A stretch of 62,980 nucleotides of DNA, filler included, from Reclinomonas americana ATCC 50394 (GCA_048213135.1; 9 parts of 9 records of this genome joined end to end with filler, not necessarily neighbours in it), one strand, 5' to 3'; shown: positions 6,727 to 24,336, counted from the whole stretch's first letter. Notes: generated from the sequence alone by a model not told the origin. Translations and numbers: made by a program.

Positions 6727-9369
6727 TTACTCCTCGTTGTGCTCTGCGCGATCGACACCATGCTTGCGCAACAGACGGGCCGGTGGCGGGCGCATCAACG
6801 GGAACATGAGTACCTCCTGCGATGCGACGGCGAATGAGTGAGAAGAAGCAGGCAGTACGTCGCACAGGGCGCAACTCGAATGTGGGTGTGTCCGGCCAGC
6901 AGCATGCACAGGCGATCGATGCCGAGACCGAAGCCGCCAGTGGGCGGCAGGCCGTATTCGAGTGCAGTGCAGAAGCTCTCGTCGGGTGGATGTGTCTCCG
7001 CCGCCCCCTGTCCGCGATCCTTTTGTTGCATGTCGAAGCGATGGCGTTGTTCTTCGGGGTCGGCAAGCTCGGAGTAGGCGTTGCAAAGCTCCTTCCCGCC
7101 GACAAACAATTCGAAACGCTGACTCAGACCGACCTGTGCGCATAATGCCTTCAGAGCGCGCGGCCACGGCGATGACACACGAATACACAGAAGTACCCTG
7201 TCAGCATCGGCACATTCGCGGGCCAGCGGGCTCATGCACAGCGGATGGTGCAACACAAAGGTCGGCTGCACGAGCGACGGTTCAACGAGTGCCGAAAACA
7301 AGTCGTCGTACGCCTCGGCCGCACTGCGCGGCAACGAGGCGTCGGGAGACGACAAGCGCGGTGTCAGCCGCGGGTGCGTCTTCATCAGTGTCACCAGCTT
7401 TTCGAACAGCTCTGTACGTCCAGCAGCGTGTGAGTAGGCAGGGTGGGAAGATAGAAGAACGCGATGTGCGTAAGCGTGGTAAAACCTGGATCGTTGGGCG
7501 ATGGCAGGATCACGCCAAGCGCCTCCTCGATTGCTTTGCAGAAATCAACCTTGGCGAACGGTTCAGCAAAGTCGATGATGGTCTCCGGGGCCGAAGGCAG
7601 TGGCACCTGCAACGAGCCCACCGTGTTCGAGACGACAGCTATGGGGAGAGAGAGGGGGGTGGGAAGAGAGAGGAGGGAGAGAGGGAGGGAGGGAGGGAGA
7701 GAGAGAGAGCGAGGAAGGAGGGAGGGAGGGAGAGAAGGAGGAGACAGAAAGAGAAGGGGAGGAGGAAGGAGAGGGAGGGAGAGAGGGAAGGAGGGAGAGA
7801 GAGAAATGCTTGATAATGAATGACCAGGCACGTGAAGAGAGCGGGAATGAATGGTGACCCAACTGCGCAGCAGCTGCTCGCACAGCTGCATAATGTCGTT
7901 GTAGTCGAGGTAGGCCGCGTAGAACTCGAGAGTGGTGAATTCGGGGTTGTGCGTGGCGTCGATTCCTGACAGCAAGTGAGGTGAGACAAGACAAGTGAGT
8001 CAGTGTGTGTTGTGCGTGCAAACCTTCGTTGCGGAACTGCTTGCCGAGCTCGTACACGCGGTCCATGCCACCAATGACGCATTGCTGTTGCATAGTGAGG
8101 CGAGGAAGAGTCGTGAGAGCATGAACTGCAACCTCCTCGGTGCAGACCTTCAAAAACAACTCGGGGGCAATGCGCATGACGAGGTCGAGGTCATCAATGG
8201 CATTGGCGCGAGTGGCAAAGGGTCGTGCGGTTGCACCACCCGCCTGCGTCCACAGAATCGGCGTCTCCACCTCCAGGAAGTGGTGACTGTTCAGGAAGGC
8301 ACGCAATTCGGCCAGCACCTGAAGTCAACGTGTCACCCACAACGTGCAAAAGGCCAGAGGCACGAGGATGCGAAGGAAGGAGGACCTTGAAACGCAAGTG
8401 AAACGTGGCGCGTACTTCGGGATTGACAAGCATGTCGAGGTATCGTTGACGGGTGCGCACGTCCTGCGCACCACATCAGTGAGCAGAGGCGATGGCAAGA
8501 AGCACAATGCACCACAACAACACACACACACACCGGTTCTTTGATCTCTTTCGGCAGCGCATGCAAGCACGGCGACAGCAGGTGCATGTTGCGCGGAATG
8601 ATGCTCAACTCACCCTTTTTCGATCGCCCAACCACACCTCGAACACCTTACATAAACATCGTCCATCAGTTCACGCATACAACAGACAGCATAGAGCGCA
8701 CGCGCGCGTGCATACCAACGATGTCTCCGCGTTTCAGCAACTCTGCATCCGCAGCAAACTGTTCCCGCGACGCGTACTCGTCACGAGTGGCCATGACCTG
8801 CACTCGCTCACCTGCACACAACGCCTCGTTCAGAAGACAGAGAAGAGAACAGACAGAGACAGGGAGGGAGAGAGAGAGAGACCAGCACTCTCGACATGGT
8901 AGAACACGAGCGACGATCCACTGGAACGCCGCGACACAATGCGTCCGGCCACTGCACACTCGCCAGGTGCGCGCCCGCCCGGCTGCACCTGCGCCTCCTC
9001 AGCCACGCGACGCACATCAGCAATCGAGTGCGTCACAGAGAACACTGATGGCTGTGTAGTGCATGCATCATCATTGTCATCATCATTGAGTGGAATGTGT
9101 CGCTTCTGTCTTTACACACGCATGCACGTGCGCGCAACTGGCAGCTGTGGAGGGTATGTGCGTCCGTTGAATGCTGCACGCAGTGCGTCGAGTCGCGAGC
9201 TGCGGTAGACTGCGTCGGAGGAGGTGGCCTCGTTGGTAGCAGTGGAGCTGAAAAGCTGGGCGAGAAGGAGAGGTGTCAGCGGGAGAGAGAGTGCGTTGAG
9301 TGTGAGTGGAGAATGAGGTGACGAAACGCGACAGCAGAGCGCGAGGCGTTGTCGCACGAGAGACAACAT
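6727..9369 (-). CDS. KARS: Class II lysyl-tRNA synthetase, probably mitochondrial (about 12 introns)
   Basis: Motifs [79 protein letters not shown]. The spliced N-terminus [19 protein letters not shown] resembles a mitochondrial presequence. Confidence 0.95.
7642..7806 (+). repeat. About 165-nt polypurine/polypyrimidine tract with (GGGA)n runs inside a LysRS intron
   Basis: Almost only G and A on the + strand. Confidence 0.9.
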
Positions 9370-9459
9370 GATTGCGGCGATGTCCTGCTTCGTTGTCAGC
9401 GTCGAACTGATCACAATACGCCTTCTTTTCGTGCACGCGCACACCAACCGCCGTCGTGT

Positions 9460-21310: not shown

Positions 21311-24300
21311 ATGTCTGCGCAGCATCGTTTGTCTGTGTTGGAGAAGCACTTGAACCCCGTCGGTGCGGGAGGCTCGCGCTCTGCGGAGGAGGAAGAGAGG
21401 GTTGTCGCGGCTCCCATGGCCGCGGAGATTGATGCCGGAGTTGGCGAGGATGAGGATGGAGAGGAGCATGTTGACACGGGTATGTCTTTGCACACACGCA
21501 CACGCACGCACAGAGGGGAGAGAGAGTGAGAGAGTGCGAGAGATGCAGTCACAGGGAGCGAGACGCACACACTGCAGTGCGTTGTGTGCTTGTTGCGCTC
21601 TCCCTGCGTATGCGTGTGCGTGAAAGAGAGAGAGAGAGAGAGAGAGAGAGAGAGAGAGAGAGNNNNNNNNNNNNNNNNNNNNNNNNNNNNNNNNNNNNNN
21701 NNNNNNTTAATTAATTAANNNNNNNNNNNNNNNNNNNNNNNNNNNNNNNNNNNNNNNNNNNNCTCGTTCTCTGTCAAGCGTTTGCAGGGCCTGTTTGCGT
21801 CCGAGTACCCCGAACTGCGTGTGGCCATGCTGAAGTTGCGTCGTTCTGCATCTCCCTCTCTTGTATCCATCCCTACGTGATGTGTGACTGGTACGCTTGC
21901 AGTTTGTTCCGTGAGCCGATCTTTGCGCCGCGCTACGACCTGGGCTACCAGCAGTTCCGCGAGGTACATCTTGCTGTTTTGCTCCCTCTTTTCCTCCCCA
22001 TCAAGTCTGAACCCTGTTGCGTCCTCCCGCTGCAGTTGACGCTGCAACGGTGCAAGCGTGTGGCCGCGAGCGGTCTCATCAACCTCCGTGACTACAAGAA
22101 GGAGCCTCTGCGGTACCTCTCTGGTCTGGAGTACGCGGCACTCGTCGACTCGTCGATGGCCACCAAGCTCGGCGTGCAGTTCTCGCTGTTTGGCGGCTCG
22201 GTGCTGTCGCTCGGCTCCGAGCGTCACGATCACCTGGTCGACGACATTGGCGCGCTGCGCCTGCCGGGCGTGTTTGCGCTGACGGAGTTGGGCCATGGCT
22301 CGAACGTGCGTGGCATTGAGACCACGGCCGTGTACGACCACGCCACGCAGGAGTTTGTCATCAACACTCCGAATGAGACGGTTCGCGTGTGTGCATTGTA
22401 CAACGTGCTTGTGAAGATTCTGACATCCCTTGCGACGTTTGCAGGCGCAAAAGTGCTGGCTCGGCAACGCCGCCAAGCACGGCGTGATGGCCACCGTGTT
22501 TGCACAGCTGACGCTCGGGGGCGAGGACAAGGGCATCCACGCGTTCTTGGTGCCGATCCGCAACGCCGACACGATGGAGCCGGTGCCGGGTGTGCGCATT
22601 GCCGACAATGGCGCAAAGATGGGCCTAAACGGCGTCGACAATGGTCGCCTGTGGTTCGACAATGTGCGCATTCCGCGCGAGAACCTGCTGAACAAGTTCA
22701 TGGACGTGGACGCCAACGGCAACTACGTCACGGCGCTGGCGAGTGCCGATCTGCGCTTTGCCACCATGATTGGTGAGTGGTGATCCTTGCGCTCTCCTCT
22801 CCACTCCGCATCTCATCTGTGGCATCGGTGCAGGCGAGCTGGTGGGTGGACGTCTGGCAATCTCTGGTGGATCGCAGACGCTGTGCAAGGCGGCACTGAC
22901 CATTGCCATCAAGTACGGCTCCACTCGCCGCCAGTTTGGCATGCCGGGCGAACCGGAGACGTTCATTCTGGACTACAAGACGCACCAGATGCGCCTGTTC
23001 CCGCAGCTGGCCAAGACCTACGCGTACCACTTTTTGTTTGCCGACGCCGCCGTCAAGTACGCCAACCGCTCGCCGGCGACGATGAAGGAGGTGGGTGGAG
23101 GTCGTAGTGGCGGAGGCGGTGGTGCGATGTGATGCGCGAATCTCATTGTGGTGATGACTGCAGGTGCACGTGCTGTGTGCCGGTCTCAAGCCGCTGACCA
23201 CGTGGCACAAGGTCGACACGCTGCAGAATGCTCGCGAGTGCTGCGGTGGCATGGGCTTCCTGGCCGCCAACCGCATCGGACCGTACAAGACCGACACGGA
23301 TGTGGAGCAGACCTATGAGGGTGACAATGGTGCGAAGAGGAAAAACCGTCGATCTTCTTGAAGATGATTTGGCTGACTCGATCGTCCCCGCGCAGTGGTG
23401 TTGCTGCAGCAAGTGACACGCTCGCTGCTGTCGGACCTGAAGCGCGACATGCGCTCTGGTGGCAAGCTGTCGGCCGTGCTGAAGGTGGCCGAGCACGAGT
23501 TCTGGCCGTACCTGCACGACAAGAATCCGGTCAAGCGCCGCATGCTCAGCGATGTGCGTCAACACCAATTCTCCTTCCCCTATTGTGGTTGGTACTCACA
23601 CTAGTGTTGGTGGCACAGGAAAAGACCAGCGACCCGCGGTTCTACCAGCGTGCGTTCGAGTACCGCCAGTTCAAGATGCTGATGAAGCTGGCGGCCAAGT
23701 TGGAGAAGTTGTCGGCGTCGCGACAAATGACGCCGCTGGAGGCGTGGAACAACTGCCTCGACCTGGTCATTGACACGGCCCTGGCGTACATGCACAAGTT
23801 GGTTTTGGAGAAGGTTCGTGTACATGCGCGTGTGTAATTGCAGCTGATTGTGTGTCATGGCGCGCTCACCCTTTCTGATGCAGTTCCTGGAGGGCATTGA
23901 GAAGGCACATGCTGGCGACCGCGACATGCTGCGCGTGCTGTGCTCGCTCTACTCACTCAACTACCTGGAGGAGAACATGGGCTGGTACCTGTCGAACAAG
24001 TACTTTGCGCCGAGCAAGGCCGACGCCATCCACGAGCAGATTCTGCGCCTGTACGACGTGATCCGCCCGGTGGCAGTGGACCTGTGCAACGGTTTTGGCT
24101 TGCCGGAGGACCTCATCGGTGCTCCGATTCTCGGCGATTGGGTCGAGGCCATGTCGTGCGTGCACATACTGCTGCTGCTGCTGCTCCCTCCCTTGTGTTT
24201 CAGTCGTCTGACTTGCGGGTGCGTTAACAGGTGGCACAACACACCCGAGGCCAAGGCCGCGTCAGGGTCGTCGTCCTCATCTGGCACTGCAGCCGCCCCG

Positions 24301-24336
24301 TCCGCATTCGACATGTCACGCGCCTCACGCAAGTGA
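21311..24336 (+). CDS. Peroxisomal acyl-CoA oxidase with N-terminal PTS2; interrupted by the gap at 21663-21762
   Basis: [65 protein letters not shown]. The first exon before the gap carries RLSVLEKHL. Confidence 0.92.

Follow-up and report, generated by a model that had tools for sequence, protein, structure and literature searches.

GTTGCG donor sites rarely follow an exonic G in a nuclear DNA window of Reclinomonas americana, consistent with a one-base shift in 5' splice-site register

We analysed a window of 62,980 bases (the whole stretch of DNA examined) from Reclinomonas americana ATCC 50394 (GCA_048213135.1), which is eukaryotic nuclear DNA with a GC content of about 58%, dense genes and very numerous short introns, and describe here how the last base of the exon (position -1) relates to the sequence of the intron donor, or 5' splice site, that follows it (positions +1 onwards). 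Donors beginning GTTGCG were rarely preceded by G and most often by A, compared with a majority of G before other donors; the split is genuine, strong and does not stem from how sites were picked. It had been remarked upon in a preliminary description of positions 6727 to 24336 (hereafter the span). Within the span, Pfam matches of open reading frames (ORFs) and modelled exons named the following genes:

about 9260-6727, minus strand, lysyl-tRNA synthetase (LysRS)
12041-14104, plus strand, HslU
14916-16524, minus strand, AAA ATPase
about 17375-21220, plus strand, NCBP1/CBP80
21763-24336, plus strand, acyl-CoA oxidase

The closest database matches of proteins encoded in the window were only 55-66% identical, and there is therefore no close sequenced relative in the collections searched. 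All introns are in silico gene models from 63 kb of one genome, and every junction is a modelled one. The final set held 206 introns, 27 fixed by homology and 179 predicted by a gene finder, which worked by dynamic programming with codon usage, an intron length prior, a score for branch site and YAG acceptor, a composition model and a donor score. Codon usage was trained first on Pfam-matched stretches, as long-ORF self-training chose wrong frames. The donor score covered intron positions +3 to +9 only, as a three-class intron-side mixture; exon-side bases were never used in donor choice and therefore the pattern at -1 cannot have been built in, while wrong calls would draw -1 toward background and thus weaken the contrast. 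A flat GT donor model was rejected after misplacing several junctions, for example to 13048 instead of 13043, as was a single-matrix donor model that also chose 13048.

For homology fixing, every alternative GT-AG pair within about 50-60 nucleotides (nt) that was in frame and free of stops was ranked by the score of homologue profiles alone; GT and AG were imposed, so that the borders covered are GT-AG only. The 27 introns fixed in this way (LysRS 11, acyl-CoA oxidase 9, HslU 7) were the best in-frame GT-AG pair in 24 cases and tied best in three (12244, 13043 and 23554), and their removal restored the frame of conserved proteins, in keeping with U2-type GT-AG introns. The gene finder was exact for 21 of the 27 and made four wrong calls in those three genes; homology corrected it at 12412 and 22381 and supplied introns that it had missed, and all six validated introns missed by it had degenerate donors after G. 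Pfam coordinates continued over many of the predicted junctions (PARP_reg 16-79/80-135, ACOX 1-59/61-143, AAA 6-43/46-92/101-131). The span itself held 56 modelled introns, the 27 homology-fixed and 29 finder-derived.

Among the GTTGCG donors of the span (n = 12), only that at 18408 followed G, as the preliminary description had stated; seven followed A (6875, 9138, 13043, 13601, 18607, 20263 and 21835), two followed C (11521 and 12412) and two followed T (12244 and 17462). A was likewise the commonest base before the 41 GTTGCG donors of the whole window (A18, C12, T9, G2), where -1G was found in 2/41 GTTGCG donors compared to 114/165 others (Fisher p=1e-14). The other classes had -1G in 51/75 (GTRNGT), 21/37 (other GTT), 32/39 (other GTR) and 10/14 (GTC) donors. 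The contrast held in a high-confidence subset (2/33 versus 88/123) and in the set fixed by homology only (0/7 versus 17/20, p=1.4e-4).

As GTTACG, GTTTCG and GTTG[AGT]GT donors resembled GTTGCG in their behaviour at -1, a shifted class was defined as GTTGNGT or GTTNCG donors (53 of 206 introns, 26%), in which T at +3 is given by definition. G preceded 3/53 donors of this class compared to 113/153 canonical donors (p=2e-19), and 2/33 versus 72/97 when only introns that would break the frame if retained and that had standard 3' signals were taken. GTT donors that kept G at +5 (GTTCGT, GTTTGT, GTTTGC, GTTAGT and others) followed G in 20/25 cases and were therefore counted in the canonical register.

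The check proposed in the preliminary description, a contingency or mutual-information test of -1 against +3 to +7, gave an association in this window of 0.19-0.27 bits with each position, a level reached by 0 of 2000 shuffles, and a general compensation between -1G and the intron side, seen as dependence of -1 on +3 to +6, was present in the window as well. Once the shifted class was removed, little dependence between -1 and the intron was left, GTGCGT excepted; the donor split is mainly one of two registers and not a continuum. Within the canonical class, -1G was found in 12/27 donors with a perfect GTGCGT core versus 101/126 with an imperfect core (p=4e-4). In GTGNGT donors a base other than G stood at -1 in 15/27 cases with C at +4, 3/18 with A and 5/18 with T (p=0.008), so that C at +4 substitutes for -1G in these donors; GTGAGT donors kept -1G (15/18).

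The earlier proposal of two compensating modes of recognition stands in part. An exon-anchored mode is seen in the imperfect canonical cores (-1G in 101/126), and an intron-anchored one in GTTGCGT and, to a lesser degree, GTGCGT (12/27), with the division between them lying mainly in register. The suggestion that the intron side of donors after G is nearly free did not hold, as +5G was kept in 133/156 (85%) and +3G in 96/156.

The base composition of this DNA bears on these counts. GGTT and its complement were under-represented window-wide, with G before GTT at 13-15% in exons, antisense and intergenic sequence and at 7% in introns; G stood before 13-14% of non-donor exonic GTT and before 5/51 non-donor GTTGCG sites. 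Because G is rare before GTT everywhere, part of the missing G before GTTGCG is due to composition, and against a simple k-mer background of 13.5% the depletion of G was marginal (p=0.07). With the rarity of GGTT controlled by taking GTT donors alone, -1G was found in 2/41 GTTGCG donors compared to 21/37 others (p=6e-7). A phase-matched background was also used, matched for k-mer and codon phase and, for canonical position -2, taken from bases before exonic GGT. Against it, -1G in the shifted class was 3/53 versus 20.8% expected (p=0.004) and -1A was 24/53 versus 19.8% expected, a 2.3-fold excess (p=3e-5), with C and T as expected. In phase-0 introns, where -1 is a third codon position and A makes up 10% of bases, A preceded 8/19 GTTGCG donors.

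The two commonest donor hexamers, GTTGCG (41) and GTGCGT (27), share the core TGCGT, which started at +2 in 27 donors, at +3 in 34, at +4 in 2 and at other offsets in 1 each. The intron consensus block of the shifted class was displaced by one base relative to the GU. A pairing helix that moves by one base must take its exon-side preference along. Raw counts at canonical -2 were flat, with no visible preference for A; against the phase-matched background, A at canonical -2 was found in 37/113 cases versus 13.2% expected, an excess of about 2.5-fold (p=7.5e-8). Shifted -1 behaved as canonical -2, and G at shifted -1 was left unused (3/53). The idea of a +1 shift therefore passed a test that could have failed it, and the earlier proposal that A|G takes the place of the canonical AG| stands as regards the enrichment of A at both positions; the shortage of G is not explained by it.

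Within the shifted class, -1A was found in 13/34 perfect GTTGCGT donors versus 8/10 imperfect GTTG-type donors (p=0.03), and the latter had -1G in 0/10 cases. A register with a bulged U at +2/+3, which predicts that -1G is kept, was not supported: G preceded 3/53 donors of the class and 0/10 imperfect ones of the GTTG type. The reading in which the intron begins one base further on (AG, then TTGCGT) was rejected, since the acceptor would then have to move too and no consensus is seen in this class at the first base of the following exon (G15, A10, C7, T9).

At their 3' ends the two classes were alike. The strict branch motif CT[CGA]A[CT] was found in 38/49 shifted and 114/148 canonical introns, with CTCAC, CTCAT and CTGAC leading in both; the motif is rewarded by the finder, so that its presence is partly by construction, and its equality between classes is not. 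The median distance from branch A to acceptor was 19.5 nt in shifted and 19 nt in canonical introns, the median intron length 69 versus 69.5 nt (Mann-Whitney p=0.39), and the acceptor CAG in 43/49 versus 133/148; intron body composition was alike. Both classes occurred in 15 of 26 gene models, and when the 206 introns were compared all against all by BLAST, the sole matches were simple repeats of 14-48 nt (79 pairs, in both classes), with no family-wide similarity. The same 3' features, mixed genes and lack of shared sequence speak against both a minor-spliceosome-like system and a family of mobile introns. What is observed of the two classes is a core at either of two offsets, a loss of -1G in the shifted class, an A preference displaced by one base and equal 3' signals.

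In LysRS the following introns were fixed by homology, each given with the last exon base, the donor and the bits by which profile scoring separated it:

6817-6875, minus strand, exonic A, then GTTGCGCC, shifted class; best by profile, next donor -30.4 bits
7134-7196, minus strand, G, then GTACTTCT, degenerate GTACTT; 63 nt, a profile insertion of 22 amino acids, margin only -1.1 bits
7412-7485, minus strand, G, then GTTTTACC, degenerate GTTTTA; margin -6.8 bits
7639-7863, minus strand, A, then GTTGGGTC, shifted class with imperfect core; 225 nt, margin -7.7 bits
7966-8023, minus strand, G, then GTTTGCAC, GTTTGC; margin -32.7 bits
8085-8147, minus strand, G, then GTCTGCAC, degenerate GTCTGC; 63 nt, margin -10.8 bits, missed by the finder
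8319-8385, minus strand, G, then GTCCTCCT, degenerate GTCCTC; margin -26.0 bits
8464-8533, minus strand, G, then GTGTGTGT; margin -6.3 bits
8647-8715, minus strand, G, then GTATGCAC; margin -16.2 bits
8812-8882, minus strand, G, then GTCTCTCT, degenerate GTCTCT; margin -5.9 bits
9052-9138, minus strand, A, then GTTGCGCG, shifted class; margin -3.5 bits

The preliminary description had placed all highly degenerate donors of LysRS and NCBP1 after a G. For LysRS this was supported by homology, with GTCTCT, GTCCTC, GTCTGC, GTTTGC, GTTTTA and GTACTT each the best choice by profile (margins -1.1 to -32.7 bits). For NCBP1, GTTTGC at 19834 and GTACAA at 20800 do follow G in the sequence, without a homology check, and the finder preferred 20827 to 20800. 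Two of the LysRS introns (8085-8147 and 7134-7196) are 63 nt long, in frame and stop-free, so that ORF-based gene finding reads through them; they were revealed solely by the homologue profile, as insertions of about 21-22 residues. The intron at 8647-8715 has the acceptor AAG and not the usual CAG, and its donor lies 16 bits ahead of any other. The longest validated intron (225 nt) contains a purine-rich GA/GGA simple repeat on the plus strand at 7640-7800.

The introns listed upstream of and within HslU were:

11521-11592, plus strand, intron of an unnamed gene, C, then GTTGCGTT, shifted class; gene finder only
12244-12315, plus strand, HslU, T, then GTTGCGTG, shifted class; homology tie with 12268 (-0.4 bits)
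12412-12475, plus strand, HslU, C, then GTTGCGTC, shifted class; +31.6 bits over the finder's first choice
12724-12784, plus strand, HslU, G, then GTGAGAAA; next alternative donor -12.7 bits
13043-13112, plus strand, HslU, A, then GTTGCGTG, shifted class; tie (-0.3 bits) with 13048-13114
13503-13597, plus strand, HslU, G, then GTGAGCCG; upstream of a 3-nt exon, fixed by profile
13601-13669, plus strand, HslU, A, then GTTGCGTG, shifted class; follows the 3-nt exon, no alternative
13952-14020, plus strand, HslU, G, then GTTAGTCA; next alternative donor -17.5 bits

The 3-nt exon of HslU, CAA (Gln) at 13598-13600 on the plus strand, gives the Q of a conserved stretch, and the profile score was 682.5 bits with this micro-exon versus 671.9 bits with a single long intron.

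Introns of NCBP1 and acyl-CoA oxidase were as follows:

17462-17639, plus strand, NCBP1, T, then GTTGCGTG, shifted class; 178 nt, gene finder only, low confidence
18408-18477, plus strand, NCBP1, G, then GTTGCGTA; the sole shifted-class donor of the span after G, gene finder
18607-18669, plus strand, NCBP1, A, then GTTGCGCC, shifted class; acceptor 18669 or 18675, gene finder
20263-20329, plus strand, NCBP1, A, then GTTGCGTG, shifted class; gene finder, flanking exons match Pfam MIF4G_like_2
21835-21902, plus strand, acyl-CoA oxidase, A, then GTTGCGTC, shifted class; margin -8.0 bits
21964-22035, plus strand, acyl-CoA oxidase, G, then GTACATCT, degenerate; margin -9.5 bits, retention costs 20 bits
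22381-22444, plus strand, acyl-CoA oxidase, G, then GTTCGCGT; margin -8.1 bits
23554-23618, plus strand, acyl-CoA oxidase, T, then GTGCGTCA, perfect canonical core without -1G; tie (+0.7 bits) with 23530
24156-24230, plus strand, acyl-CoA oxidase, C, then GTGCGTGC, perfect canonical core without -1G; margin -3.5 bits

Upstream of the NCBP1 intron at 18408, the Pfam MIF4G match extends to residue 103 of a 104-amino-acid exon. With the NCBP1 exon 19891-20262 as query, a word-indexed protein search gave no homologue at E<=0.001, and the NCBP1 junctions therefore rest on the finder and on Pfam domain continuity. That same exon, on the plus strand, matches Pfam MIF4G_like_2 (E=2.8e-14), yet is without a word-search homologue, a sign of protein divergence in the lineage.

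Further genes named by Pfam in the window encode PARP, TRAPPC9, a phosphoribosyltransferase, a beta-lactamase-like protein, Kelch and arrestin-like proteins, SRR1, CCDC53 and a methionine-aminopeptidase-like M24 peptidase. Two others are splicing-related, an RRM and CCCH zinc-finger protein (57741-61231, minus strand) and a TFIP11-like protein with TIP_N and G-patch domains (61845-62980, minus strand), both apparently without bearing on 5' splice-site choice. Eight assembly gaps of identical build, 44 N, TTAATTAATTAA (with stops in six frames) and 44 N, interrupt the window, and several of them cut genes, for example at the start of acyl-CoA oxidase at 21763:

14336-14435, 21663-21762, 31530-31629 and 37272-37371, assembly gaps, N44-TTAATTAATTAA-N44
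45768-45867, 47602-47701, 55009-55108 and 61745-61844, assembly gaps, N44-TTAATTAATTAA-N44

The reading towards which we lean, with slightly better than even confidence, is that a single spliceosome uses one 5' splice-site helix that forms in two registers. All introns would be ordinary GT-AG introns of about 69 nt handled by one spliceosome, with a CTSAY branch about 19 nt from a CAG acceptor, and a single helix, strongest at the intron core UGCGU, would read the 5' splice site. Canonically, the core would run from +2 (G, then GUGCGU) and the last exon base would pair beside +1G, a -1G pair that every imperfect canonical core would need. In shifted donors the core would run from +3 (GUUGCGU), with +1G filling the usual place of -1G and +2U a tolerated mismatch; opposite the last exon base would then lie the position that reads -2 in canonical donors and prefers A, so that G at -1 would be useless there and A favoured. 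Our best guess for the shortage of -1G is that G-ended sites may let the core decay and so end up in the tally of canonical GTT donors; alternatively, an over-stable helix may be avoided.

The partner in this helix is probably U1 small nuclear RNA (snRNA), and we infer for it a 5' end that pairs C at +4, unlike the usual ACUUAC. In nearest-neighbour duplexes, the usual U1 5' end, taken as printed in PMC4856993, gave -0.6 to -2.5 kcal/mol on H-GUUGCGU (H standing at -1) and -2.4 kcal/mol on A-GUGCGU versus -13.3 kcal/mol on AG-GUGAGU. A hypothetical U1 in which GC replaces the two central U's (ACGCAC) gave -10.3 to -14.0 kcal/mol on GUGCGU and -7.3 to -10.4 kcal/mol on GUUGCGU, and took the shifted register when -1 was A. 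As the usual U1 binds the core poorly, yet GTGCGT and GTTGCGT (not GTGAGT) dispense with -1G, a change of the U1 5' end from ACUUAC to an ACGCAC-like sequence is predicted. Pairing with the U6 ACAGA box was rejected by inspection only as a source of the motif, since UGCGU is not complementary to it. The fuller claim, that about a quarter of the organism's introns are routinely recognised in a +1-shifted register, otherwise known from rare human sites alone, by an ACGCAC-like U1 whose one helix would serve both frames, with the requirement for G at the last exon base turned into a preference for A, is more tentative, and we would put it somewhat below an even chance.

Several points weigh against the two-register reading. 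The +1 shift alone leaves the under-representation of G at -1 unexplained: G was the rarest base there (3/53) despite a predicted tolerance of G.U, and on the hypothetical U1 it was as stable as A (-10.2 versus -10.4 kcal/mol), so that the choice of A over G is not explained by stability alone. When GTT[AT]CG donors were included, -1A was found in 11/19 imperfect versus 13/34 perfect cores (p=0.25), which makes compensation by A weak; position -2 of the shifted class showed no preference for C, and the positions after the core differed somewhat between the classes (+7 versus +8). All junctions are models, and 179 of the 206 introns come from a finder that favours strong cores and that missed 6 of the 27 validated introns. 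No U1 gene was found in the window, where Rfam models at gathering thresholds gave 0 matches. Mamiellophyceae have GTGCGT donors with no U1 change known from the accounts in PMC2483917 and PMC3879977, and given these donors the predicted change of U1 would not be compelled.

Plain compensation without any shift, which we regard as unlikely, would make GTTGCGT a strong intron signal, with its U bulged or with the motif read by U6 or protein, and leave the exon end unconstrained; G-ended sites would let the motif decay and the excess of A would be a by-product of codons or context. Such negative coupling between -1G and the intron consensus is general in plants, animals and fungi according to PMC10599564, and in our data -1G was also relaxed in perfect GTGCGT (12/27), C and T at shifted -1 matched background, and the depletion of G was marginal against the background that was not phase-matched (p=0.07). 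Against it, the 2.3-fold excess of -1A over the phase-matched background (p=3e-5) was of the same size as that of canonical -2A, and A preceded 8/19 GTTGCG donors in phase 0, where it forms 10% of third positions. The core was confined to two adjacent offsets, and imperfect GTTG-type donors, with A in 8/10 and G in 0/10, behaved in the opposite manner to that predicted by a bulged register.

The discreteness of the classes and their different behaviour at -1 would also suit two recognisers, with a second U1 variant, small RNA or protein complementary to GUUGCGU and the standard U1 serving the rest, and Physarum is reported to have modified U1 variants alongside standard ones (bioRxiv 10.1101/2022.06.08.495308). 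We consider this quite improbable, as a contiguous match of GUUGCGU into the exon gives no reason for an A preference like that at canonical -2, and 3' signals, lengths and gene distribution were identical between the classes.

U12-type introns carry the donor RTATCCTT and the branch site TCCTTRAY near the acceptor. A separate intron type, either minor-spliceosome-like or formed of mobile 'introner' copies whose insertion site supplies the A, would have in common with U12 introns an extended, invariant motif on the intron side (+1 to +7) and an absence of exon-side G, and is very improbable in view of a branch motif, branch distance, length and acceptor that are the same as in other introns, a GTTGCGT motif unlike the U12-type donor, and the BLAST of the 206 window introns, which showed only 14-48 nt simple repeats. 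We give equally scant credence to an artefact of calling, in which sites were chosen for their G-GT or GTTGCG look by the preliminary description and by a finder that predicted 179 of the 206 introns, whose donor score rewards GTTGCGT and GTGCGT and which made four wrong calls in validated genes, because that finder is blind to exon-side bases, the 27 homology-only junctions split alike (0/7 versus 17/20), wrong calls would weaken the contrast and the validated introns missed by the finder were all degenerate after G.

Shifted and bulged U1 registers are established at rare human sites (Roca and Krainer 2009, described in PMC4856993), where 1.5% of sites is the figure given for all validated non-canonical registers combined. 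The human model shifted site likewise has an exon end CA before GU (PMC4856993). Shifted registers are rare in human, whereas here the class accounts for 26% of modelled introns (53 of 206) and its motif is the strongest in the window; the core is UGCGU here and not UAAGU, and the register is deduced here from statistics and not from suppressor U1s. Negative coupling of -1G to the consensus at +4 to +6 has been described by Burge, Carmel, Sahashi and Denisov, as reviewed in PMC10599564; in those systems too, exon and intron consensus bases are interchangeable and weak intron sides nearly always follow G. The pairwise information given there for human in a 30-species survey is 0.04-0.07 bits, compared to 0.19-0.27 bits here, and it stems here mostly from one discrete class and not from graded trade-offs.

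In Entamoeba, a U1 with ACAAAC has co-evolved with GUUUGU donors (bioRxiv 10.1101/2022.06.08.495308), which is likewise a lineage-specific donor poorly bound by ACUUAC and a precedent for the predicted U1 change; Entamoeba is intron-poor with one nearly uniform donor, whereas the present DNA is intron-rich, with two registers and many degenerate donors. A GTGCGT(G) donor consensus with a CTGAC branch occurs in Mamiellophyceae (Ostreococcus and Micromonas; PMC2483917, PMC3879977), resembling the canonical-register consensus GTGCGT with its CTSAY branch motif found here, and the relevant passages of those accounts do not mention a GTTGCGT class. In the full-text literature, GTTGCG or GUUGCG as a donor consensus was found in none of the matches listed. 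Compensation between exon and intron is a well-known principle, and shifted registers have been described in rare cases; a discrete shifted class at about a quarter of introns is new. The interpretation given in the preliminary description is partly supported.

For gene prediction in this DNA, finders that rely on one donor matrix will put junctions in the wrong place or overlook them, and even with three donor classes 6 of the 27 validated introns were missed; the background scarcity of GGTT matters for any donor statistic. If a shifted register does serve a quarter of introns, 5' splice-site recognition would be more plastic than the near-universal pairing of ACUUACCU with GURAGU suggests, and this organism would offer a natural system in which to ask how cleavage is held to one position when the U1 helix moves.

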